DNA of 64,000 bases from an uncultured Acidobacteriota bacterium (GCA_963786555.1 CAWAZO010000008.1:7751-71750), one strand, 5' to 3'; shown: positions 3,110 through 54,697, numbered from the stretch's first letter. The notes: a model not told the origin generated them from the letters alone. Program-made: numbers and translations.

Positions 3110-5716
<2,607 letters not shown>

Positions 5717-5761
5717 CTGCCACCGGCGATGCCTTCCTGGCATCGCCGGCAGGGTTTCAGG

Positions 5762-5788
5762 GCAGCCGCTCCGGGCTGCTCTTTTTTT
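5762..5788 (+). terminator. Rho-independent terminator after gyrB
   Basis: gcagcc-gctccg-ggctgc followed by tcttttttt. Preceded by a second hairpin ccggcgatgcc/ggcatcgccgg at 5723-5749. Confidence 0.7.
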
Positions 5789-5857
5789 GCTTCAGGCACA
5801 GTCAGACCGGATTCGCGGAAATGTATCCGGCGAAGGAGCCAGGTTTCCACGCCCGGT

Positions 5858-5900
5858 GGCCGGGGTCCCCAACAAGCCCGCTGTTGGCTTGCTGGGTGGA
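5858..5900. repeat. GC-rich hairpin (REP-like) repeat, single copy of the family also seen at 34098-34194
   Basis: ggccggggtccccaacaagcccgctgttggcttgctgggtgga is similar to agccggggtccccgaccagcctgctgttgggctggttggggtgaa. Stem ccccaacaagcc / ggcttgctgggt. Confidence 0.55.
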
Positions 5901-6009
5901 GGTGCGAGTGCCAGATACCTCAATCTTGGAACTGCTCTAGCTACTACTTACCCGTGGCCTTCAGCAATGGTGTGCGTTACAGTTCTAGCTGCGCTCTGGC
6001 GCAACTATT

Positions 6010-7509
6010 ATGATTTCTTGCCAGGACGATTCCGCGATGAGCGTTGAGATTGATCACCGCCAGCAAACGGCTCTGCGCCAGCAAACGGCTCTGCCGCTGT
6101 GCGTCGATCTGGACGGGACGCTAATCCATGGCAATCTGCTGTGGGAATGTATCGTCTTGCTACTCAAGAGCAACGCCGCCTGCCTGTTGCTTTTGCCTTT
6201 CTGGCTGTTGACTGGCGGAAGAGCGAAGCTGAAGCGGCAACTGGCCCGCCGGACGCTGCTCGAACCAAAAAACATTTCGTACAACCAGGAGCTGATCGAG
6301 TTTCTGCAAACGGAACATGAACGCGGACGTCAGATCGTTCTCGCCACAGCCTCTGACCAGCAACTGGCGGAAAAAATTGCCGCGCATACAGCTCTGTTTG
6401 ACCAGGTTTACGGCACTCGTGACGGGCGAAACCTGAAAGGGCGCACCAAAGCAGACTTTCTTCTTGCCACATTTGGGAAGCGCGCATTCGACTATGCGGG
6501 AGACTCCGCTTCCGACATGCCCGTTTGGAGGGTCGCCAATGCCGCTTATGTCGTGGGTTCCAAAGCAACTGCCGATCGGGTCGCTGCCGTCGCCGAAGTA
6601 CGCCGTTGGTTTCCGCGCAAGGACCGCAATCTCACATGCTGGTCGCGAGCGATTCGCATCCGCCACTGGAGCAAGAATCTGCTGATGCTGGCTCCCCTGA
6701 TGCTGGCGCATCGGCTCGCCTGGTCTTTGCTGCTCACCACGTTTTTGGGAATGGTTCTGTTTGGTTTGTGTTCTTCAGGGGTTTATATTCTCAACGATTT
6801 GCTGGATTTGCACTCCGACCGTGCGCACCCCTGGAAGAGTTCCAGACCCTTTGCCACCGGAGAACTCTCGATCCTCTCGGGCATCGTGACCTCCCTGCTT
6901 CTGCTGGGCGGCGCACTCGGGCTCGGCACCGTGATCCTGAATGGGCGTTTTGCCGGGGCGCTTGCCCTCTATGCGGTCATTGCGATCTGGTATTCACTGC
7001 GGCTAAAGAGGATTGCAATCTTCGACGTATTCGTTCTGTCCAGCTTCTATACCTTTCGCATCTGGGCGGGCGCTCTAATCACGGACACACCACTTTCCCA
7101 GTGGTTCCTGGGTTTTTCGCTGTTCTTTTTTTTGAGCCTGGCGATGGCGAAGAGGTATTCAGAGCTGGTGCACGCGGCGGAGCTGGCTGACAGTGGCAAT
7201 TCAGGCCGCAGCTACCGCGCCGAAGATCGCGCACTGCTCATGAACATCGGCGTGGCAAGCTGCTTCTCGGCAATTGTGATTCTGAGCCTCTACGTGCACA
7301 GTAACGAGGTCCTGGCACTGTATCCGAGACCGGAACTGCTGCTGCTCACCTGTCCGCTGATACTGTACTGGACCTGCCGCATCTGGCTCAAAGCGCATCG
7401 CGGCGAACTGAATGAAGATCCCGTCAACCTTGCGCTCCGCGACCCGGTCAGCTATGGCGTCGCCGCGGTTGGCCTGGCGATCATGCTGGCTTCGTCTTGC
7501 AGGCTCTAG
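6010..7509 (+). CDS. HAD-phosphatase / UbiA-family polyprenyl-phosphate phosphoribosyltransferase fusion (Rv3806c-like)
   Basis: N-terminal HAD motif I CVDLDGTLIHGN. C-terminal multi-TM UbiA domain with NDLLDLHSDRAHPWKSSRPFATGE. Sits directly upstream of DprE1/DprE2 homologs. Confidence 0.8.
   Translation: MISCQDDSAMSVEIDHRQQTALRQQTALPLCVDLDGTLIHGNLLWECIVLLLKSNAACLLLLPFWLLTGGRAKLKRQLARRTLLEPKNISYNQELIEFLQTEHERGRQIVLATASDQQLAEKIAAHTALFDQVYGTRDGRNLKGRTKADFLLATFGKRAFDYAGDSASDMPVWRVANAAYVVGSKATADRVAAVAEVRRWFPRKDRNLTCWSRAIRIRHWSKNLLMLAPLMLAHRLAWSLLLTTFLGMVLFGLCSSGVYILNDLLDLHSDRAHPWKSSRPFATGELSILSGIVTSLLLLGGALGLGTVILNGRFAGALALYAVIAIWYSLRLKRIAIFDVFVLSSFYTFRIWAGALITDTPLSQWFLGFSLFFFLSLAMAKRYSELVHAAELADSGNSGRSYRAEDRALLMNIGVASCFSAIVILSLYVHSNEVLALYPRPELLLLTCPLILYWTCRIWLKAHRGELNEDPVNLALRDPVSYGVAAVGLAIMLASSCRL
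6058..6093 (+). repeat. Perfect 18-nt in-frame tandem duplication inside the 5' end of the HAD-UbiA gene
   Basis: cgccagcaaacggctctg x2 (6058-6075, 6076-6093), giving RQQTAL RQQTAL. Confidence 0.9.
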
Positions 7510-7626
7510 ACGGGCTTCGCGGAAGGTGTATTCCTGAAGAGAGCCAAGCGGTGTGATAGCAGAAATACACGAACTCCAGAATCGCTGAGCTGGAGTTGAT
7601 AAGTCACGAGGTTTTTCCAGATTCCT

Positions 7627-9000
7627 ATGTCGAATGCCAAATCTGATGACGAATCAGGTTCCCAACTAATATTGCAACCGCCGGTCACTTCCTATCGTTC
7701 ATGGGGACGATATCCCTTGGCCGCCCACCGCAATGTATACAGGCCAAATTGGGCCGACGAACTCGGCCGCTTTGATGATGCCGACGCTCCCGTGCTCGCC
7801 GTTGGATTGCGCCGCAGCTATGGTGACTCCTGCCTGAATGACGGCGGATACCTGATCGACGTCACTGCCATGGATCACGTGATGTCGTTCGACCGAGCCT
7901 TAGGACTCATTCGTTGCGCGGCCGGAGTATCGCTGGCCACCATCTTGCAGTTAGCGGTTCCTCAGGGTTGGTTTCTGCCGGTAACACCGGGAACGAAGTT
8001 TGTGACCATCGCCGGCGCCATTGCCAATGACGTGCATGGCAAGAACCATCACTGCGCGGGAACCATGGGGCGCCACGTAAAGCAGTTCGAATTATTGCGC
8101 AGCGATGGCAGCCGCTTCATCTGCTCGCCGACAAAAAATGCGGAGTGGTATGCCGCCACCATCGGCGGGCTGGGACTGACCGGCATCATTCTCTGGGCGG
8201 AGATACAACTGAAGAAGATTCGCTCCAGTAAGATCGCGCTCGACACCATCACTTTTCGAAGCCTTACTGAATTTCTGGATATTACCAGGGAAAGCGAACA
8301 AGCCGGTTTCGACTACACGGTTGCGTGGATTGACTGCCTTTCCGGCCGGAATGCCCGCGGACTCTTTCACCGCGGCAAACATGCGGAGACCGGCGAACTC
8401 GTGGCCAAGGGTGCAAACGACGCAAAGCTCAAGGTGCCATTCGCGTTTCCCGAGTTTGCGCTCAACCGGGTCACTGTCAAGGCATTTAATCTGCTGTACT
8501 ACGCGCTCAAAGCGAGGAAGCCGCAGACGCAGACGGTGGACTACGGTCCGTTCTTCTATCCCCTGGATGCCGTCCGCGAGTGGAACCTCATCTATGGCAA
8601 GCGCGGGCTAACGCAGTATCAATGCGTCGTTCCGGAAACTGAATCGGAAGCGTTTCAGGAAATTTTGCGCACGATCTCCAGCTCCGGCGAAGGCTCGTTT
8701 CTCGGCGTGATCAAGAAGTTCGGCGACATCGCGTCACCGGGAATGATGTCGTTCCCCCGGCCGGGGCTGACATTGGCGCTGGATTTTCCGTTTCGCGGCG
8801 AGCGCACGCTCCATCTGTTTGAACGCCTGGATCGCATCGTGCTGAACGCACACGGAGCGCTTTATCCAGCCAAGGATGCACGCATGAGCCGCGATATGTT
8901 TGAAGCATCGTACCCGAATCTGGAACGTTTCCGGGCATTCGTGGACCCGCACCTTTCGTCCGGTTTCTGGCGCCGGGTGCGGAGAGAGGATGGAAGGTGA
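7627..9000 (+). CDS. dprE1: FAD-dependent decaprenylphosphoryl-beta-D-ribose 2'-oxidase homolog (DprE1-like)
   Basis: GLRRSYGDSCLNDGGYLIDVT, PGTKFVTIAGAIANDVHGKNHHCAG, FFYPLDAVREWNLIYGKRGLTQYQCVVP and SFPRPGLTLALDFP align by eye with M. tuberculosis DprE1 over the full length. 457 aa. Confidence 0.85.
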   Translation: MSNAKSDDESGSQLILQPPVTSYRSWGRYPLAAHRNVYRPNWADELGRFDDADAPVLAVGLRRSYGDSCLNDGGYLIDVTAMDHVMSFDRALGLIRCAAGVSLATILQLAVPQGWFLPVTPGTKFVTIAGAIANDVHGKNHHCAGTMGRHVKQFELLRSDGSRFICSPTKNAEWYAATIGGLGLTGIILWAEIQLKKIRSSKIALDTITFRSLTEFLDITRESEQAGFDYTVAWIDCLSGRNARGLFHRGKHAETGELVAKGANDAKLKVPFAFPEFALNRVTVKAFNLLYYALKARKPQTQTVDYGPFFYPLDAVREWNLIYGKRGLTQYQCVVPETESEAFQEILRTISSSGEGSFLGVIKKFGDIASPGMMSFPRPGLTLALDFPFRGERTLHLFERLDRIVLNAHGALYPAKDARMSRDMFEASYPNLERFRAFVDPHLSSGFWRRVRREDGR

Positions 9001-9740
9001 GCCAGAGAATCGTGGTGCTGGGGGCAACTTCGAAGATTGCCCAGGAAATTGCTCGCCTGGCGGCGGCAGACCGCAAGCAATTCCTGCTGGTGGGTCGTCG
9101 CCCGGGGCGCTTGGCTACCGTCGCCGGAGATCTGGCCGCTCGCGGCGCCGCCGCCGTGGATTGCGTGTCGGCCGACCTGGCGGACATCGCATCTCATCCG
9201 GCGCTGGTCGAAGAAGTTCTGGCCAAGATGCCGGACTTCGACACCATCGTGCTGGCCTATGGCACGCTCGGCGAACAGGCGCGGGCGGAGAACTCAGCCG
9301 AGTATGCGTTCAGTGAGTTGACCACGAATTTCACCAGCGCAGTGTCGCTACTGACGCGGTTTTCCACGCTCCTCATGCCGCGCCGCGCCGGGTGCATCGC
9401 GGTCATTACGTCGGTCGCCGGCGACCGTGCGCGGCGCTCCAACTACATCTATGGGACGGCAAAAGGCGCGCTGGCTCTGTTCACACAGGGCTTACGTGCC
9501 AAACTCTTTTCTGCCGGTATACGAGTCCTTACAATCAAACCCGGGCCGGTTGCCACCCCCATGACGGCGAACCTGCCGGCGCGCTCGAAGTTTGCCAACC
9601 CGGAAACGGTGGCGCGCACCATCTATCGCGAGCTCGAAGACGGTCACCGCGACATCCTTTATGTCCCGGGCTACTGGCGCTGGGTGATGTTGGCAATTCG
9701 ACATATCCCGGAGAGCATCGGTAAGAAGTTGAAGTTCTGA
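8997..9740 (+). CDS. dprE2: Short-chain dehydrogenase, decaprenylphospho-2'-keto-ribose reductase homolog (DprE2-like)
   Basis: VVLGATSKIAQEIA; SNYIYGTAKGAL (YxxxK). C-terminus WRWVMLAIRHIPESIGKKLKF resembles the DprE2 tail. GTGA overlap with the dprE1 stop. Confidence 0.8.
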   Translation: MSQRIVVLGATSKIAQEIARLAAADRKQFLLVGRRPGRLATVAGDLAARGAAAVDCVSADLADIASHPALVEEVLAKMPDFDTIVLAYGTLGEQARAENSAEYAFSELTTNFTSAVSLLTRFSTLLMPRRAGCIAVITSVAGDRARRSNYIYGTAKGALALFTQGLRAKLFSAGIRVLTIKPGPVATPMTANLPARSKFANPETVARTIYRELEDGHRDILYVPGYWRWVMLAIRHIPESIGKKLKF

Positions 9741-9821
9741 ACCATGCTGCACGGATCGCGATCCACCTGCTCCGGCTAGCACGTTTCTGGAGCTGTATAT
9801 CCGGAAAGAAGTGGAAATGCT

Positions 9822-11666
9822 TTATGGGAGGCTCTCCTGCGGTATCTTGACATAGGAGACCGGAACTTCCTTTTTTCGGACATACACCGTCAACTCACCG
9901 AAGGAGTCGATGCGTTGGTAGGTGTTCGTGTGCTCGATGTAAAAACCCACCAATTCCATTCGACTGTAATCGTCCTTCAGGAAGATCAGCAGATCGGGGT
10001 CCGCCCGCTGAAAGGTCAAAAGCATTCGGAGAAGCCGATCGCGTGGGAACAAATTGCCGGTATCCCAGAGCAGCGGCATACCCGGGATCAAAGGTTGGTT
10101 GAATACCGCGTATGCAAACTCCATTCGAGGGCCGAAGAAGACCGTTTTTGCCGGATAGCGCGAGAGTACCTCTTCGGATTGCGCAAGCACTCTTTGCAGA
10201 CGCGGCCCCGCTCGCAGCCCCGCGAAGAAGCCACTCTGGATAGTCCGGGTTGGAAGCAGTTCGTAGTACGTCCCCTCGCCAATCAAATAAATTCTGAGAT
10301 GGGTGAAGCAGAACCATGCCGACATCACCAGAGAGACGGTGAGAAAACTCGCCAGCACGATTTTTCTGCGCGCGCTGGGCTCCGCATCTTCCCACGGGCG
10401 CAGGCAAAGGAAGGCAGCGGCCGTTAGCAGAATGCTGAGATCGCTGTGCTTCGACTCGGCATTGGTGCAGGCCATGAGCAGCGCGGCGGCAGCGGCAATG
10501 GTGCAGACGGCAAGCTGGCGCCAGCGCTTGGGCTGACGCCGCACGGAGACCGTAAGCAGCGCGGCAAAGCCGAGTACATTCAGAATCGTGAAGAGGTATT
10601 GGAAATCTCTTTCAGGCCACGCCATCTGATGGAAGGGCACAAGACTGAGCGGACTTCCCCTGAGCTTGGCAACTTCCGCATAAGAGTGGAGCAGATCGGT
10701 TGGCGGCATCTGCGCGGCGGAGCACACCAGCAGAAAGAGTCCGAACGCAATCGCGCAAGCGGCGAGCGTCTTTGCCCATTGCCGTTTGTCTTTCGTGGCC
10801 AGCAATACGAGCACCATAAGACAGGCGGGTAGGACATTGGGCTTGGAGCCCAGAACCATGGCCAGCGCGAGAGGCAAACTGATCCACGACAGCCACTGCT
10901 TCGGCTCCTGCAAGCAGGCCAGGACGGAAAGAAGAAGCAGTACGACCGCGATGTAACTGGAATTGTTGTACCACCAGAAAGGAATCGTCAGCATGGTGCA
11001 GGCTTCCACGCAGGCGATAATTGCCAGCGCCCAATGGCGTGGCACGGCGGCGCAGCGCAGCAGCCCGAAGCTCCATAGAGAGGTGAGCGTGGCAAAGATT
11101 GCCGGTAGAAAAAGCAGGGAGGCCCATCGCAAGCCGAGCAGCTTTACATCCCACCGGATGCAGGCCATAAAGAATGGAGGCATGGTGCAGGGAAAATCGG
11201 CATATGGTTTGAACCCCTGCGCGTAGTAATTGGCGGCGTGGACAAGCAGGCCCTCATCGAAGCCGCCGAACTGATACGTTCCAAGTTGGTAGACGGCGGG
11301 AAAGATGAGTATGGCCGAGAGCCAGATGAGCCCGGGCGAGCAAAAGAACCGGTGCAACCGCCATCGTCCGGCAAAGCCGGCGTAAAGCGCGATGAGGGCA
11401 ACCGAAACAAAAATAATGAATGCGTACTCGGCCGCCTGAATCCTCGCCAGTCGCGTCGTCGCATGAAGTCGGCTGCGAAAGAGCAGGCCGGCCGCTGCCA
11501 AAACCGCAGCTACCGCGGCAATTCGCAAAGCCGACCTGGTGCCCCGAATCTGGCGGCCATGGCGCGTCTGGAGTTCCAGCATCCTCCGATTTTTGCACAC
11601 GTGTTTCTCACCCACAATGGCAATACCACGGTATAGGAAGCCTCCACTCTGTATTGTTACAAGCAC
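9822..11666 (-). CDS. Polytopic GT-C type membrane glycosyltransferase candidate (ArnT/PMT-like); start uncertain (GTG 11666 or ATG 11582)
   Basis: About 12 predicted TM stretches. First-loop acidic motif GGFDEGLLVHAANYYAQGFKPYADF. Soluble C-terminal domain. Paralog at 52739..54697. Confidence 0.55.
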   Translation of the reverse strand: MLVTIQSGGFLYRGIAIVGEKHVCKNRRMLELQTRHGRQIRGTRSALRIAAVAAVLAAAGLLFRSRLHATTRLARIQAAEYAFIIFVSVALIALYAGFAGRWRLHRFFCSPGLIWLSAILIFPAVYQLGTYQFGGFDEGLLVHAANYYAQGFKPYADFPCTMPPFFMACIRWDVKLLGLRWASLLFLPAIFATLTSLWSFGLLRCAAVPRHWALAIIACVEACTMLTIPFWWYNNSSYIAVVLLLLSVLACLQEPKQWLSWISLPLALAMVLGSKPNVLPACLMVLVLLATKDKRQWAKTLAACAIAFGLFLLVCSAAQMPPTDLLHSYAEVAKLRGSPLSLVPFHQMAWPERDFQYLFTILNVLGFAALLTVSVRRQPKRWRQLAVCTIAAAAALLMACTNAESKHSDLSILLTAAAFLCLRPWEDAEPSARRKIVLASFLTVSLVMSAWFCFTHLRIYLIGEGTYYELLPTRTIQSGFFAGLRAGPRLQRVLAQSEEVLSRYPAKTVFFGPRMEFAYAVFNQPLIPGMPLLWDTGNLFPRDRLLRMLLTFQRADPDLLIFLKDDYSRMELVGFYIEHTNTYQRIDSFGELTVYVRKKEVPVSYVKIPQESLP

Positions 11667-12039
11667 ATCGTCAACGACTATCTCAGCCGGTTGAGAAGAA
11701 GAGCTTACCGAAGTTTGACAGTTACGCGAGCCTGTACCCGATTACTCGAGCTGGTTTCAAAAACATCCTTATAGCTACAGGAATCATGTGTGTGCCCTCA
11801 GGGCAGGTGAAATCATTATCATGCGGAATGGGCAACTCTTCTTTGATGATCCGCTGCTGCGGATTCACCCCCCGAAGGTCGCATCCTCAGATCAGCCGGT
11901 GATTCACCCGCGACATATAGCGTATTTGATCTGTTGGCAGACGATAAAAGCATGGCCCAAATAGCCGGCCAGGCTAGAGCTGGTTGCATCGTTGGGTTGG
12001 GCAAGAGCCGGAAGGTGATAACTCCGGGATATGTCCCGT

Positions 12040-12735
12040 TCAGAGCTGCGGCTGGTCGGAGGGTGGGAGCAGGATTGTGCCCGGGCGTCGTTGTTCTCGC
12101 GATTCCAGATGCCTCTGGCGGAAATGCGCCAGCGCCCGATTTCCCCACGCCCGCACAAAGTAGTAGTTGAGCGTAGCGCCCACGCCCGAACTTACGACCG
12201 GAATCAAGCGGGCCGTCCACTTCTCGACAAACTCGGCGCTGGCGGAGATCGCGATGCGCTGAATCACCTTCGGCACAAAGCGGTTGATCACTCCCTTTTC
12301 CAGCAATTCACGGGTGATGTCCACCCCAGCCGCGCTGGCGGCGGCGACCCACAATTCCGCAACTTCCTCGTCGGTGGTGAACTGGAATCCGTACACCAGG
12401 CTGAGTTTCTGCAGCGTGCGCATGGTGATGGCCGCCAAAACTCCCAGATCGGGCACAATCGTAAACACGCCGCCCAATCCGAAGCCGGCTCCCTCGGCGG
12501 CCGCCAGCTTCATTCCGGCGCGGACGGTCTGCTGCGCGATGTTGTCCAGCCGTTCGACCGGCAAGGTAAACAGCCCGTCATAACTCTCCACCGGAAGTTC
12601 GTGCGCGGTCCGCAGGTGAAACAGGAACTGCTCGGAATCGACCCTGATGGTTTCGTAGGCGCGAGTGAGCCCGGTGCGCAGTGCGCCCTCGACTCGCCGC
12701 ATCAGCCAGGAATGATTTGCCGTCGCTTCAGCCAT
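12040..12735 (-). CDS. EcsC-family protein
   Basis: AAAEGAGFGLGGVFTIVPDLGVLAAITMRTLQKLSLVYGF resembles the EcsC domain pattern. Recognised from memory only. Confidence 0.5.
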   Translation of the reverse strand: MAEATANHSWLMRRVEGALRTGLTRAYETIRVDSEQFLFHLRTAHELPVESYDGLFTLPVERLDNIAQQTVRAGMKLAAAEGAGFGLGGVFTIVPDLGVLAAITMRTLQKLSLVYGFQFTTDEEVAELWVAAASAAGVDITRELLEKGVINRFVPKVIQRIAISASAEFVEKWTARLIPVVSSGVGATLNYYFVRAWGNRALAHFRQRHLESREQRRPGTILLPPSDQPQL

Positions 12736-17305: not shown

Positions 17306-18169
17306 TTGAACCACTATTTACTCTCTGTCCTGCTTGGTATTGTCGAAGGGTTGACCGAGTTTCTGCCCGTCAGTTCGACCGCGCACCTGCGAATCTGCGA
17401 GCGACTGATGCACCTTTCGCTCGATGACCCGTACTGGAAGATGTACACCATCGTCATTCAGTTGGGAGCCATCCTGGCCTTGCTGCTGCTGTTCCTGCCG
17501 CGGATCGTCAATTTTTTCCGCACCTTTCCCGAAGGCGAGCGCGGCAAGAGCACGGTGATGACCCACCCCATAACGCTGACCTTTGTTGCCTTCGTCTGCA
17601 CCTCTGTGCCTTCGCTGCTGATGATCAAGCGCATCGGCCAAAATCTGGAAAGTCTCAAGGTCATGGCGCTGGCGCTCATCATTGGCGGCATCATTATGTG
17701 GATCGTCGATAGGATGAGCGAGCGGCATGAGCCCTCGACGACCGACATGGAAGAGATGTCGCTTGGCCAGGCGATCTGGATTGGCCTCTGCCAGGTGACC
17801 TCGGCGGTCATTCCCGGGACCTCGCGTTCGATGTCGACTATTGCGGCCGGGCAACTCGTCGGCATGAGCCGGCCGGCTGCCTTGGAATTCAGCTTCCTGC
17901 TTTCGATTCCGACCATGCTGGCCGCTACCGGCTATTCGCTGGTCAAGGCCCTGCACCCCAGCCACGCCGCCGCAGACACGCTCACGCCCCTGGTGATGAC
18001 CGGGCAGAATTGGATCGTGCTGATCATCGGCTTCGTAGTTTCGTTTTTCGTGGCGCTGGTCGTCGTGGAGTGGTTTCTGGTCTGGGTACGCGAACACGGC
18101 TTCGTCCCCTTCGCGATCTATCGCATCCTGGTCGGAGGCTGGGTATTATACCTCGCACTGCACAGCTAG
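17306..18169 (+). CDS. uppP: Undecaprenyl-diphosphate phosphatase
   Basis: LLGIVEGLTEFLPVSSTAHL; PGTSRSMSTIAAG; 8 TM-like segments; TTG start. Confidence 0.9.
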   Translation: MNHYLLSVLLGIVEGLTEFLPVSSTAHLRICERLMHLSLDDPYWKMYTIVIQLGAILALLLLFLPRIVNFFRTFPEGERGKSTVMTHPITLTFVAFVCTSVPSLLMIKRIGQNLESLKVMALALIIGGIIMWIVDRMSERHEPSTTDMEEMSLGQAIWIGLCQVTSAVIPGTSRSMSTIAAGQLVGMSRPAALEFSFLLSIPTMLAATGYSLVKALHPSHAAADTLTPLVMTGQNWIVLIIGFVVSFFVALVVVEWFLVWVREHGFVPFAIYRILVGGWVLYLALHS

Positions 18170-19061
18170 AGTGATACCACGGTTGAAAGCCCGGTTCCTC
18201 CACCCCAACAAGCCAACATGATTGCTCCGACTTTGAGCTTGCCGACGATGCCGTAATTGATCATCGGATCACGGTCGAACCAAGGGTTGATAATGGCTTC
18301 GGCGCTGGTGGCGTATTGTGGCCAATCCATGCCTTTTGTTCCTTTGGTCTGTGGCGGGATATTGATGAGCAATGCGCCACGGCGAGCGAGTTCAAGAGCT
18401 TGCGGCGGGTGCTACTCATCAGGTACCGCCCTTCTCTTGTTGCGCCCGACTAGCCACCCATGTTTCTTCTTGCTCTTTAGCGTGTCACCTTCGCACTTCT
18501 TGGCAACAACACGAGCATGTTCCGGTCGAAGTCACTTGCAGGTAAACCGGCTGGACGCCGTGTTCTTGTTCGATGTCTTGTAGCTGCTTGATTAACTCGC
18601 CAGAGCATGTTTCATAAATCGGTCTTTAAAGGGGCATGGCTTTAGCCTCGCCGTCCAGGGCCAGAAAAATGCGGGGCTTAGTCCCTAAGGGAACACGCAT
18701 TATTCCTAAAGCATGTTTTTGAAACAAGCTCCAGTTAACTTCGGGAACGGTTTGACCTGGAGATTTGTCTCTGCGGAATGCGAACCTCGGACTTCGTGGC
18801 CGTCAGCAATACCAGGGGGCACGACAGAAGCGGGTCAGAGGGGCAGGGGGATTGATGCTGGTTGGAAAGCCACCAGACCTTTTTGGCCAGGCTAGAGCCT
18901 TGGTCGCCGGCGCCGGTTCGCCCCTTCACGGGCACCGTGGTCAGAAGCGGCGAAACTTCCGGAAAAAGAGATGTCCTACACGCCGTGATTGCGTGTTACA
19001 ACTCGGCATTGTTGCCTTAAGCTTAAGGACGCCACAAGGCGCAGAGCCAGGTTCGGGAGGA

Positions 19062-20096
19062 ATGGTCATGGAGAAGGTTAAGGTGGGAATCGTTGGGATC
19101 GGATGGTGGTCCGATGTGCTTGCAACCGCGCTGCAAAAGAGCCCACATCTCCGCTTGGCGGCTTGTTTTTCGCGCGATCCAGAAAAGACCCGCGGATTTG
19201 CCGAAAAATTCGGCTGTGAGCCGGTTAGCTCTTTGGACGAACTTGTATCGGGAGAGAAGGTCGAGGGCGTCATTCTGACGACCCCTAACTCGCAGCATCG
19301 CGCGGGCGTCGAAACCGCCGCTGCTGCCGGAAAACATATCTTCGTCGAAAAGCCAATCGCCAACGATCTTGAGGACGCCTATGCCATTGTCGCCGCCTGC
19401 CACCACGCCGGCGTCATTCTTTCGGTTGGCCACAGCTATCGCCGGCATGGAGGATTGCGCAAGCTGGCAGAGATGATCAAGCGAGGCGAACTCGGGCGAA
19501 TCAGCCTGGCGCAGGCCATCTTTTCGAAGGATCACGGTCTACACCTAAAGCCTGAGGATTGGAGATCCCGAAGAGAAGAGATGCCGGGTGGATGCTTAAT
19601 GCAAATCGGCATCCATCACATCGACAATCTGATTTATCTGCTCGGAAACGTCTCCGAAGTCTCCGGCATGTTCGCGCACCTCGAAACCGCCGGAGCGATC
19701 GCGGATGTGGCCGCCATCCTGATGCGGTTCGCGAATGGCGCGATTGGACATGTTGGAGTCGATTACATCTCGGCGGACAAGTTCTCTCTCACTGTGCACG
19801 GGACCGATGCTCTCGCCTCCTTCGATCTGACCCGGGGCCTCACCGTGTTCCGGCGGGGTCAGGACGCAGAGGAGCGGCTCGCATTCGTGCCGGTCGACTA
19901 TCTTCGTGCCGAGCTCGACGAATTTGCCCTTTGCATTCGCGAGCATGGTCATCCTGAAGTGGATGGTCTGGTCGCCATCCAGCCCTTATCCGTCGTGCTT
20001 GCGGCCGTCGAGTCCGCTGCCACTGGCCGAACGGTTGCTCTCGGAGCACTGAGGGATGACTGGTTGCTTGGGCCACCCACTCTGCGTCATGCATAA
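19062..20096 (+). CDS. Gfo/Idh/MocA family NAD(P)-dependent oxidoreductase
   Basis: GGGAGG then ATG 19062. MEKVKVGIVGIGWWSDVLATAL...VILTTPNSQHRAGVETAAAAGKHIFVEKP. Confidence 0.8.
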   Translation: MVMEKVKVGIVGIGWWSDVLATALQKSPHLRLAACFSRDPEKTRGFAEKFGCEPVSSLDELVSGEKVEGVILTTPNSQHRAGVETAAAAGKHIFVEKPIANDLEDAYAIVAACHHAGVILSVGHSYRRHGGLRKLAEMIKRGELGRISLAQAIFSKDHGLHLKPEDWRSRREEMPGGCLMQIGIHHIDNLIYLLGNVSEVSGMFAHLETAGAIADVAAILMRFANGAIGHVGVDYISADKFSLTVHGTDALASFDLTRGLTVFRRGQDAEERLAFVPVDYLRAELDEFALCIREHGHPEVDGLVAIQPLSVVLAAVESAATGRTVALGALRDDWLLGPPTLRHA

Positions 20097-20346
20097 GACG
20101 CAGAACGGGGAATGGGATGCTGTGACGAATTCCCGACAACAGGGAAACTATGCTCACCTCGGCGCCTGATACTTCGCGACTATGTGAGCAATAGCGAACA
20201 GACACCATATTCCGCACTTGATAACTTCTGGGATGCTGGGGACCGCGAGAGTAGCTTATAGGATTGATCGTAGTACCCGACCACAGAAGAACGCACACCG
20301 GTCACAACATCAAGCCATTACCTAGAGGGTAGAGAGAGAGTTAAAG

Positions 20347-52738: not shown

Positions 52739-54697
52739 TTAATTTGATTTCTTGCGGTAGACGTCGTAGTTGCCGAGGCTTGCCACCATCTGAAAATCGT
52801 GCCGCAGCAATTCGAGCATCCGATTCTTTTGCTCTACCGGGTCCGCCCGGAGTTGAAGCTCGCGCTTCACGATCAGCCATCGGATGTCCCGCTCCCGGCT
52901 AAGCTGGAGAATTGCTTCCGGGCCGTAGGGATTGACCGTATGGTCGAACATCAGCACCGGAAAGCCGGGATGTCTTCCGCTGCTGTAGTAAAAAAGATCC
53001 TCGCCGGGAATCATCAGGATTCCGTCCTGCCGCGGGATCTCGCGCTCGGAAAAACGAAGCAGCTCCTCGAACTGTGGCAGCCACGGACCGCGGAGCGAGA
53101 GCCCTTTCAAGGCCGGCAAACTTGACCGGTTTATCGCGCCATCGGAAAGATTCGCATAGTCCAGACGTTCATGGCTCCAGAGGTAAAACCCGCCCGAGAC
53201 CACCATCGAGAGCGCGACCGCGGCCGCGAGTGAGACTGTCCGCCAGCCAGTCCGATCCTTCGACAGCGGGAAAAGCACGGTGATCGTGTCCGCGAGCAGC
53301 AGCATAAGCAGGGGCCAAATTGCGTAAGTGGAGCCCCAGAGCTGCTGTGACAGGAAAGCTCCATGGATGGTCCCAATCAGCACGAACGGCAGAACCAGCG
53401 CGATGCCCCGGCGACGTCTGACGCTCAAAAGCGCAGAGACGAAGGAAGCGATCAACAGGAAGGGCCAGAGAGCGAGCAGGCTCTCCGCGCGCTCCGCCGG
53501 CTCGGTTTCGACGAATTGGCGAATCAGCACCCAGAGGAAAGGGCTCGACAGCAACAGGCCGGAAAGCAGTGCCAATTTTCGGTCGCACGGCCTTCGAACG
53601 CTCCCTTGAGATACGGCGCGCGATTCGGTCAAGCTGCGCGGTTGCAGCCAACGGCTTCCCGGCTTGAACCACAGCAGCAACGCACCGGCCAGAAACAGCG
53701 CAATCCACCAAGGCAGCATCGGGTTCTGGTAGACGGCGAGCATGTCCACCAACGGTGGCATCCGCCGGGATGCGGCAAACTGGATTGTCCAGTGCTTGTA
53801 ATTCGCCAGACCGGCGGTCAGATGGATCAGGAGAAGCGCCGACAGCAGTCCTACGGCCGCCCCGAGCAAGACCCACAGCAGTCCGCGTACGGGCCGGCGC
53901 TGCCACAGGTTGATGCCCAGCAGCACGGCGAGCCCCAGCGCCGCACTTCCCAGGAAGGCGAGTCCCGTATTCTGTTTAACAAACAGTGGAACTACCAGCA
54001 GCACCCCGGTAAAAAAAGCGGGCAGCGGAGAAAATCCTCTGCGCTCCAGTCTTTGAAGGAGAACGATGCAAATCAGTACGACAAACGTGCAGTCTGGATC
54101 GTAAAAGGGATGGGGAAAAATGCAGTAAATCCCCAGCACAGTCAAGGGCGCGCTCAGCAGAAACGCCACCATCCGGGCTAACTTCACCTGGCCACGCAGC
54201 AGCAGGTTCAGCAGAATTTGCCAGGTGAGCACCGTGGCCGCTCCGCCCTCGACCGCGCAGTAGAGCACGTGATGAAAAAAAACTCGCCCAGTGAGCTTGA
54301 TGAGCGCCGCTTGCGTGAGGAAAGTCAGGGGCGCATAGGGCAAAACAAAATCGCGATACGGCATATCGCCAAGCGAGATTCTGTGCGCGTTCTCCAGGAT
54401 GTAGCTGAGGTCCCACAAGACTCCCAGCCGGGTGTTCTGCCATAGCACCACGGCGGCGGTCGCGACAAAAAGCGCCAGCGCGGCGATCCAGTCGCGCCAT
54501 CTCCAGGGCTCCTCGCCGCTGGGTTTGTCCACCTCCTCCGCCGGCTCCGCAATGGGCACAGCTTCGCGAGTTTGCCGATCGATTTTCATCAGCAGCATTG
54601 GAATGAATGGAGTCTTGGGCCGGAGCGCTTCATAACCGGTTGGGAAGGTAATTATCTCACCCCGAGTATTTGCGTCGCTGCCGGGAGCGGAGGACAT
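52739..54697 (-). CDS. Polytopic GT-C type membrane glycosyltransferase candidate (paralog of 9822..11666); start uncertain
   Basis: WDLSYILENAHRISLGDMPYRDFVLPYAPLTF first-loop motif. More than 12 TM segments. The soluble C-terminal domain ends ...LGNYDVYRKKSN, compared with ...FGELTVYVRKKE in the paralog. Confidence 0.55.
   Translation of the reverse strand: MSSAPGSDANTRGEIITFPTGYEALRPKTPFIPMLLMKIDRQTREAVPIAEPAEEVDKPSGEEPWRWRDWIAALALFVATAAVVLWQNTRLGVLWDLSYILENAHRISLGDMPYRDFVLPYAPLTFLTQAALIKLTGRVFFHHVLYCAVEGGAATVLTWQILLNLLLRGQVKLARMVAFLLSAPLTVLGIYCIFPHPFYDPDCTFVVLICIVLLQRLERRGFSPLPAFFTGVLLVVPLFVKQNTGLAFLGSAALGLAVLLGINLWQRRPVRGLLWVLLGAAVGLLSALLLIHLTAGLANYKHWTIQFAASRRMPPLVDMLAVYQNPMLPWWIALFLAGALLLWFKPGSRWLQPRSLTESRAVSQGSVRRPCDRKLALLSGLLLSSPFLWVLIRQFVETEPAERAESLLALWPFLLIASFVSALLSVRRRRGIALVLPFVLIGTIHGAFLSQQLWGSTYAIWPLLMLLLADTITVLFPLSKDRTGWRTVSLAAAVALSMVVSGGFYLWSHERLDYANLSDGAINRSSLPALKGLSLRGPWLPQFEELLRFSEREIPRQDGILMIPGEDLFYYSSGRHPGFPVLMFDHTVNPYGPEAILQLSRERDIRWLIVKRELQLRADPVEQKNRMLELLRHDFQMVASLGNYDVYRKKSN

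Follow-up and report, generated by a model that had tools for sequence, protein, structure and literature searches.

A predicted polyprenyl-phospho-D-arabinofuranose donor pathway beside a GT-C fold protein at an acidobacterial locus

Introduction

In Citrobacter youngae, the protein ORF15, which combines a HAD/PRP domain with a PPPRS domain, makes polyprenyl-phospho-ribofuranose from phosphoribosyl pyrophosphate (PRPP), and when Asp18 of the HAD/PRP domain is changed to Ala (D18A), the product builds up with its 5-phosphate still attached (Kelly et al. 2024 PNAS, PMC11127046). A synthase of this kind, a MATE or SMR flippase and a GT-C glycosyltransferase make up a three-component system, and the variants that deliver arabinofuranose (Araf) also carry DprE1/DprE2 homologues (PMC11127046). 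The examples listed in the supplement come from Citrobacter, Stenotrophomonas, Rathayibacter, Burkholderia, Escherichia coli, Rhizobium, Xanthomonas, Bacillus and a phage (PMC11127046). Here we describe a locus that resembles these systems in a 64-kb stretch of DNA (hereafter the window; 64,000 nucleotides, GCA_963786555.1 CAWAZO010000008.1:7751-71750) from an uncultured Acidobacteriota bacterium, where three adjacent genes (the trio) encode a HAD-UbiA fusion protein, a homologue of the oxidase DprE1 and a homologue of the reductase DprE2, and a fourth, convergent gene encodes a 614-aa membrane protein.

Acidobacteriota are a dominant and very abundant soil phylum that is poorly characterised, and D-Araf is rare outside the Mycobacteriales. 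An earlier note made from the sequence of the window had read the trio as a polyprenyl-phospho-D-arabinose (DPA) donor pathway of the mycobacterial type. We found that the locus very probably encodes the cytoplasmic part of a Gram-negative-type system for extracytoplasmic D-arabinofuranosylation. All coordinates are positions in the window, and L001-L019 are labels of relatives' loci. The four open reading frames (ORFs) are present in the ORF list of the window exactly where that note had placed them, and a motif check agreed with the motifs that it quoted.

The HAD-UbiA fusion protein

The first protein of the trio carries a HAD domain in front of a UbiA domain. Its residues 21-496 align with positions 5-480 of the 482-position NCBIfam model NF006088 (PRK08238) at 551.2 bits, against a cutoff of 351, and the models for decaprenyl-phosphate phosphoribosyltransferase (DPPRS) reach 103-126 bits on residues 207-491, under their own cutoffs. 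The sole relative with a solved structure is Mycobacterium tuberculosis Rv3806c (8j8j, 1.8e-23, residues 212-418). Together with the Pfam matches, these results bear out the proposal that the gene encodes an Rv3806c-like UbiA transferase fused to a HAD module.

The motifs of both domains are present. In the HAD domain, motif I (DLDGT, residues 33-37) holds the nucleophilic Asp, which we infer from the motif to be the equivalent of ORF15 D18, and motif IV reads GDSASD (residues 164-169). In the UbiA domain, the Asp-rich loop NDLLDLHSD at residues 262-270 pairs with NDVRDVEAD of Rv3806c, so that the NDxxDxxxD pattern is present, and the R/E loop KRYSEL at residue 381 pairs with KRYAEL; the counterpart residues of the ORF15 PPPRS domain are N247, D248, D251, D255, R366 and E369 (PMC11127046). 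Family membership and motifs predict a synthase activity and a 5-phosphatase activity for the fusion protein. The suggestion, made earlier for this locus, that the fused HAD domain removes the 5-phosphate matches the biochemistry of ORF15 D18A (PMC11127046) and is in itself not new.

The HAD-UbiA fusion is already known as the curated family PRK08238, which has thousands of members. An exhaustive HMMER scan found 3,174 representatives of clusters formed at 50% identity (E <= 1e-30), the best 150 of which cover nearly all of the query, starting at about residue 9-31 and ending at 482-498, and in a plasmid collection 81 of the 103 matches span at least 80% of the query. The protein of the Rhizobium sp. 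CCGE531 locus matches residues 28-494 at 36% identity (4e-62), with both domains covered. Two of the representatives, P0195 (781 aa) and P0284 (966 aa), have added N-terminal regions of ~300 and ~495 residues, and these stretches may represent additional fused modules, an epimerase subunit for instance.

The DprE1 and DprE2 homologues

The second protein of the trio aligns over residues 52-442 with the DprE1 structures from M. smegmatis and M. tuberculosis (E = 1.7e-74), and the runner-up family in the PDB, xylitol oxidase, follows at 3.5e-10. It shares 38.5% identity with the M. tuberculosis enzyme over 379 aligned columns and contains a Pfam FAD_binding_4 domain (3.9e-18). The residues of HGKNHH-137, QYQ-330 and AKD-415, the last containing the equivalent of Lys418, match those of the M. 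tuberculosis protein. As had been noticed earlier, the residue aligned with Cys387 of DprE1 is Ala, and the HMMER alignment (nicvdfp against ltlaldfp) places a Thr at Asn385 as well. Cys387, the covalent target of benzothiazinones, governs drug susceptibility and not catalysis.

The third protein, a short-chain dehydrogenase/reductase (SDR), aligns end to end with M. tuberculosis DprE2 (21gq_C, residues 3-245, 1.3e-30), and the next SDR appears at 2e-13. It has the SDR cofactor motif GATSKIA-9 and the YxxxK motif in YGTAK-152, and its C-terminal tail RHIPESIGKKL pairs with RHIPRSIFRKL of the M. tuberculosis protein (RHIPxSIxxKL). The generic SDR model PRK07102 scores 261.6 bits on it, with a cutoff of 267. 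The GTG start codon of this gene overlaps the TGA stop codon of the DprE1-homologue gene by 4 bp (GTGA, in the context GGTGAGC), and the two genes are probably translationally coupled. The earlier descriptions of these genes, as DprE1-like and as a coupled SDR with a DprE2 tail, hold, and for the trio as a whole the best matches among solved structures are Rv3806c, DprE1 and DprE2, well ahead of the next families.

Conservation of the trio in relatives

Scanning genomes with the fusion protein brought up four metagenome-assembled genomes (MAGs) with homologues 74-77% identical to it, of which three carry the label Acidobacteriota and one the label beta proteobacterium, and a Proteobacteria MAG at ~40%. 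Synteny in relatives had been set beforehand as a test of the pathway reading, and we found the trio contiguous in L002, L003 and L004 (74-82% identity), in the distant Proteobacteria MAG L005 (38-54%) and in L008, a metagenome contig from JGI. In L001 the contig stops inside the second gene and the first two genes are visible; the pair of DprE1 and DprE2 homologues is kept in every relative whose contig is long enough. L008 reproduces gyrB, the trio and the convergent 614-type gene, with 91-96% identity for the intact genes (94-96% for the trio, 92% for the 614-type protein). Beyond the latter, two phage-type integrases and an HTH_17 protein (L008 6-3295) replace the EcsC and RNase J genes of the window, which suggests that recombination is frequent at the boundary on the far side of this gene or that a mobile element lies there.

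What flanks the trio differs from one relative to the next. In L004 it has a GT4 glycosyltransferase on one side and an initiating sugar transferase (Bac_transf) on the other, in L002 the flanking genes are unrelated redox genes, and in L005 one flank is a weakly PMT_2-like membrane protein. The trio therefore acts like a portable cassette. Homologues are also found in a cultured acidobacterial strain, Granulicella tundricola MP5ACTX9, on the mobilizable plasmid pACIX904 (NC_015059.1, L017/L019), where they are annotated only generically (DprE1 52%, DprE2 46% and HAD-UbiA fusion 40% identity). There the cassette is split by ~8 kb, with the DprE2-DprE1 pair at 8563-10748 and the fusion gene at 18782-20272 beside a GT8 gene. 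An operon on a Ruegeria plasmid (L018, NZ_CP065364.1, 39580-43494) has the order HAD-fused UbiA, GtrA, FAD oxidase and SDR. The GtrA flippase therefore belongs to the cassette in some lineages and was lost from, or never there in, the acidobacterial version.

The 614-aa GT-C neighbour

The 614-aa protein has 11 hydrophobic segments, within the 7-13 transmembrane helices typical of GT-C enzymes, and matches no family in Pfam (E <= 0.01) or NCBIfam. Its own family is small: we detected 47 homologues, and they too lack Pfam domains and functional names. Its AlphaFold model, built with a 42-sequence alignment, is confident (pLDDT 89.3, pTM 0.89), and in a Foldseek search of the PDB ranks 1-10 are all GT-C proteins at a probability of 0.99-1.00, with ArnT and AftA in the lead and ALG3, PglB, Emb and Pmt among the others. 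The GT-C type proposed for this protein is thereby upheld. The TM-scores against ArnT are 0.46 and 0.51, and with 11-14% identity the similarity to AftA and Emb is one of fold only. In the family alignment, D137 is invariant and E138 near-invariant within FGGxDEGLLVHAAxYYAQGFKPYxDF, a candidate for the acidic catalytic motif expected in the first extracytoplasmic loop, and K275-P276-N277 (the KPN motif) is invariant. Translation probably begins at Met29 (nt 11582), given that the homologues P0005 and P0006 start at an equivalent MLE(I/L) and that the model shows residues 1-41 as disordered.

Two relationships of this protein were considered and rejected. Membership in GT136, the family of C. 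youngae ORF12 (EpsG in CDD), is not borne out, as there is no Pfam match and hhalign against the GT-C protein of Rhizobium CCGE531, used as a stand-in for ORF12, gave a probability of 0.15%. Sequence kinship to the GT-C-like proteins that lie beside the trio in L005 and Rhizobium was likewise rejected.

The genes around members of the 614-aa family differ from locus to locus. The DPA trio adjoins the gene in the window and in L008, and nucleoside-diphosphate (NDP)-amino-sugar genes, GT2 and GtrA lie near it in L010-L012 (64% identity) and in L016 (50%). In L015 (47%) the neighbours are GT4, UDP-glucose dehydrogenase and YdjC. The gene for ribose-5-phosphate isomerase B (RpiB) is directly upstream in L007 (61%; RpiB at 9441-9887) and in L013 (64%; RpiB at 7335-7781), two independent contigs, and in L013 a GT4 and a methyltransferase gene follow downstream. 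The RpiB adjacency could tie the family to pentose/PRPP supply, or be a coincidence. L006 (76%) and L014 (53%) have no sugar genes near the family member. This pattern fits a GT-C protein that uses polyprenyl-phospho-monosaccharide donors.

A second GT-C-like protein in the window

The earlier note had also named the protein encoded at 52.7-54.7 kb, a membrane protein of 652 aa (P0048), as a paralogue of the 614-aa protein and a further candidate arabinofuranosyltransferase, and this claim is not borne out. At the sequence level the paralogy was rejected, since BLAST between the two gives E = 0.11 and only the loop-1 motif aligns between profile and sequence; a weak profile match and a common fold remain. 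In hhalign the two family profiles match at E = 0.003 with a probability of 10%, collinear over 424 columns, and DE/WD, PY.DF and KPN/KQN coincide. The model of the 652-aa protein is of moderate quality (pLDDT 73), with ArnT, AftA, STT3 and EmbB as top PDB matches. Its family has at least 1,870 matches, the few named ones being Acidobacteria, and the genes around it encode a phosphoesterase and a TetR/RND efflux set, with nothing to connect it with arabinose. It is probably a GT-C protein of similar architecture and at most a distant relative of the 614-aa protein.

Locus layout and sequence quality

The features of the window are collected in Table 1. The hairpin downstream of gyrB marks the upstream operon boundary; a scan of 5600-12100 found no sigma-70 promoter, and such a scan is uninformative for Acidobacteriota. 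The BacA/UppP undecaprenyl-diphosphatase gene lies at 17306-18169, 5.6 kb downstream of the 614-aa GT-C gene, and is relevant to the supply of the polyprenyl phosphate carrier, yet probably housekeeping.

Table 1 Features of the locus and of the window, in window coordinates
Feature	Position	Strand	Properties and basis
HAD-UbiA fusion; predicted bifunctional polyprenyl-phosphate 5-phosphoribosyltransferase / phosphoribose 5-phosphatase	6010-7509	+	499 aa; NF006088, Pfam, Rv3806c structure, motifs
N-terminal HAD (PRP-type) domain	~6100-6560	+	Pfam HAD residues 33-172, E = 1.1e-08
C-terminal UbiA (PPPRS) domain	~6628-7497	+	Pfam UbiA residues 231-459
DprE1 homologue; predicted FAD-dependent polyprenylphospho-beta-D-ribofuranose 2'-oxidase	7627-9000	+	457 aa; PDB DprE1, NF053785, FAD_binding_4
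DprE2 homologue; predicted SDR 2'-keto reductase closing the ribo-to-arabino epimerisation	8997-9740	+	247 aa; PDB DprE2, motifs, tail
GT-C fold membrane protein; candidate polyprenyl-phospho-Araf-dependent arabinofuranosyltransferase	9822-11666	-	614 aa, convergent to trio; AlphaFold and Foldseek, adjacency
Perfect tandem duplication of an 18-bp unit, two copies of CGCCAGCAAACGGCTCTG	6058-6093	+	In frame; adds RQQTAL to N-terminal leader, upstream of HAD motif I
Strong terminator-like hairpin	5759-5782/5792	+	3' of gyrB; 9-bp stem, 6 GC pairs, then T-run
Second GT-C-like membrane protein	52739-54697	-	652 aa; moderate model and Foldseek

Upstream of the trio, hemH (ferrochelatase, 3-921), hemY (protoporphyrinogen oxidase, 798-2196) and gyrB (3155-5716) are each broken across reading frames; in gyrB the frame is lost just past MKELVE near nt 4757 and regained near 5100-5190. 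Since these genes are essential, the breaks are most likely assembly indels and not pseudogenes. Nothing of this kind affects the trio or the 614-aa gene, all of which are intact. The fusion gene contains a tandem duplication, and its orthologues in L008 and L004 carry a single copy of CGCCAGCAAACGGCTCTG and encode 493 aa, against 499 aa here.

Discussion

We propose that, following the phosphoribosyl transfer predicted for the UbiA domain, the fused N-terminal HAD/PRP domain would strip the 5-phosphate to give polyprenyl-phospho-ribofuranose (step 2), and that the DprE1 homologue as FAD oxidase and the DprE2 homologue as SDR reductase would invert C2 to give polyprenyl-phospho-D-Araf (step 3). 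Flipping of this lipid (step 4) is not encoded at the locus and would be carried out by a transporter elsewhere, or possibly by the GT-C protein itself. Finally, as fold and adjacency suggest, the 614-aa GT-C protein may move Araf to an envelope acceptor, which could be an exopolysaccharide (EPS), lipopolysaccharide (LPS) or a protein (step 5). The donor part draws its support from the three near full-length best matches to Rv3806c, DprE1 and DprE2, with wide margins and conservation of all motifs checked, from the synteny of the trio in relatives, from its place beside two sugar transferase genes in L004 and from the published biochemistry of the same architecture. For the transfer step, support comes from the GT-C fold of the neighbour and from the recurrence of its family beside GT2/GtrA donor cassettes for polyprenyl-phospho-sugars.

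Several observations weigh against this reading, some of them against the system as a whole. The locus lies outside any glycan cluster, flanked by gyrB on one side and EcsC/RNase J on the other. We found no GtrA, SMR or MATE protein in the window, where ORFs of at least 90 aa with at least 3 hydrophobic segments were selected and then scanned with Pfam; in contrast, the Ruegeria operon has GtrA and the Rhizobium CCGE531 locus an SMR transporter. A flippase encoded outside the window is nevertheless plausible, because in Pseudomonas aeruginosa the GtrA-like protein 6247 is non-essential in PAO1, although needed in the E. coli reconstitution, and ArnE/F may substitute for it. In the literature searched, including a search for DprE1 in Acidobacteria, no D-Araf glycan is reported in Acidobacteriota. 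The one lead is arabinose in the EPS of Granulicella WH15, from a second-hand mention that gives neither configuration nor ring form.

Other points of this kind concern the role of the GT-C protein, for which the main rival is that the donor operon is as described and the 614-aa protein is an unrelated neighbour that uses another lipid-linked sugar, the real transferase being encoded at another locus. The adjacency of GT-C gene and trio is limited to the window and L008, and because L008 is a single close relative this is weak independent evidence. The trios of L002-L004 have no 614-type GT-C within 10 kb, nor does the trio of L005 have this GT-C. Conversely, the four sampled GT-C homologues in L006, L007, L013 and L014 (76%, 61%, 64% and 53% identity) adjoin no sugar-donor genes and have no DPA genes within 8-10 kb, and two other homologues sit in the amino-sugar/GT2/GtrA clusters. 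The genes are also convergent, hence not co-transcribed, and the Araf transferase TfpW of P. aeruginosa is itself unlinked to its donor genes. Set against this, L008 keeps the arrangement despite a different far flank, with integrases in place of EcsC and RNase J, the repeated position of the family beside polyprenyl-phospho-sugar cassettes fits a GT-C protein that takes the locally supplied donor, and donor promiscuity has been shown for ORF12 (Kelly et al., PMC11127046). On balance we regard the unrelated-neighbour explanation as a serious one that probably does not apply, and we lean slightly towards the 614-aa protein being the Araf transferase. Of the earlier claim that it is a candidate arabinofuranosyltransferase, the fold and the adjacency at this locus stand, while conservation of the adjacency elsewhere was found in L008 only.

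A different possibility is that the FAD oxidase and the SDR make no arabinose and that the system delivers ribofuranose, a 2-keto sugar or another pentofuranose epimer. Both homologues score below their NCBI equivalog cutoffs (NF053785 for DprE1, 377.4 bits against 500; NF053786 for DprE2, 175.9 bits against 250), and because of this their exact substrate and product can only be deduced indirectly. The two epimerase subunits are best treated as homologues with conserved catalytic machinery and not as automatic equivalogs. The changes near the active site, Asn385 to Thr and Cys387 to Ala relative to M. tuberculosis, point in the same direction, as does the fact that related systems make xylofuranose (Xylf) via other epimerases. 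NF053785 is still the top family for the DprE1 homologue, 100 orders of magnitude above the next, and this model is taken to be tuned to actinobacterial sequences. Moreover, the 38.5% identity to M. tuberculosis DprE1 is above the figure of 33% published for the P. aeruginosa enzyme, which is functional, the Lys418 equivalent, HGKNHH and QYQ are conserved, DprE2 is the best PDB match of the SDR by 17 orders of magnitude with a tail motif common to both, and the Xylf systems use a different, single SDR and no DprE1/DprE2 pair. As for position 387, the Cys is dispensable for catalysis, and Ala or Ser is found there naturally in some mycobacteria. A product other than arabinose thus appears improbable. 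Decay of the trio or of the GT-C gene is more improbable still: hemH, hemY and gyrB just upstream are frame-split and the fusion ORF contains the 18-bp duplication, but each of the four ORFs is unbroken and can be aligned with its orthologues from end to end, the duplication keeps the reading frame and precedes the catalytic motifs, and broken frames in genes that are essential are better explained by indels from assembly or sequencing, the related MAGs being presumably of long-read origin to judge from names in the style of soil metagenome bins.

A D-arabinofuranosylation system in this phylum would have several consequences. A complete donor pathway in soil Acidobacteriota, including one on the G. 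tundricola plasmid, widens the range of Gram-negative pentofuranose addition systems and predicts a D-Araf glycoconjugate in Acidobacteriota, and G. tundricola MP5ACTX9 offers a tractable strain in which to look for D-Araf production. The 614-aa family may turn out to be a new family of glycosyltransferases, one whose donor can be tested. Going further, we tentatively suggest, while thinking it somewhat more probable that the idea fails, that the 614-aa protein founds a GT-C family, so far met only beside genes of acidobacterial type, of modular, envelope-decorating transferases that use the polyprenyl-phospho-sugar of whichever cassette is adjacent, D-Araf here and amino sugars via GT2/GtrA in relatives, and that Acidobacteriota carry surface D-Araf without a dedicated flippase. 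In the donor steps we expect no new mechanism, because the donor enzymology, including the fused HAD phosphatase, is already established.

Comparison with known systems

The mycobacterial DPA pathway (Rv3806c, Rv3807c, DprE1/Rv3790, DprE2/Rv3791, Rv3789 and Emb/Aft) uses the same families of transferase, oxidase and reductase and the same chemistry, the M. tuberculosis and M. smegmatis proteins are the best solved-structure matches, and the DprE1 and DprE2 genes are adjacent in both. The window differs in that its phosphatase is a fused HAD domain and not the unrelated Rv3807c-type enzyme, in the Ala at Cys387, in the lack of a GtrA-like Rv3789 and in a GT-C protein that is related to AftA/Emb only by fold; its lipid is probably C55, versus C50 in mycobacteria. 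The group IV pilin system of P. aeruginosa (PsPA7_6245-6249 and TfpW) and rhizobial noeCHOP/noeCNHOP are Gram-negative donor operons of the DPA type with Rv3806c, DprE1 and DprE2 homologues and a dedicated membrane arabinosyltransferase. Unlike the window, P. aeruginosa has a separate phosphatase (6245) and a GtrA-like gene within the operon. The acceptors are pilin Ser/Thr in P. aeruginosa and N-acetylglucosamine of the Nod factor in rhizobia, whereas the locus in the window has no pilin or nod neighbours.

The Gram-negative three-component pentofuranose system makes a better comparison for this locus than the mycobacterial pathway does. The ORF15-ORF14-ORF12 system of C. youngae O1/O2 has the same HAD/PRP and PPPRS fusion, auxiliary epimerases that diversify the pentose and a GT-C protein that finishes the process outside the cytoplasm, and the Rhizobium sp. 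CCGE531 locus, which the window fusion matches over both domains, is listed as a candidate three-component system in Fig. S12 of Kelly et al. In contrast to the C. youngae system, the window has no MATE/SMR flippase at the locus or elsewhere, its GT-C protein is not GT136-like by sequence and the locus lies outside an O-antigen/EPS cluster; in contrast to the published three-component examples, the phylum is Acidobacteriota. The system in the window is essentially an acidobacterial instance of the known Gram-negative pathway for pentofuranose (Araf) addition, modestly new in its phylum, in the absence of a linked flippase and in a GT-C family that has neither a Pfam match nor a functional name.

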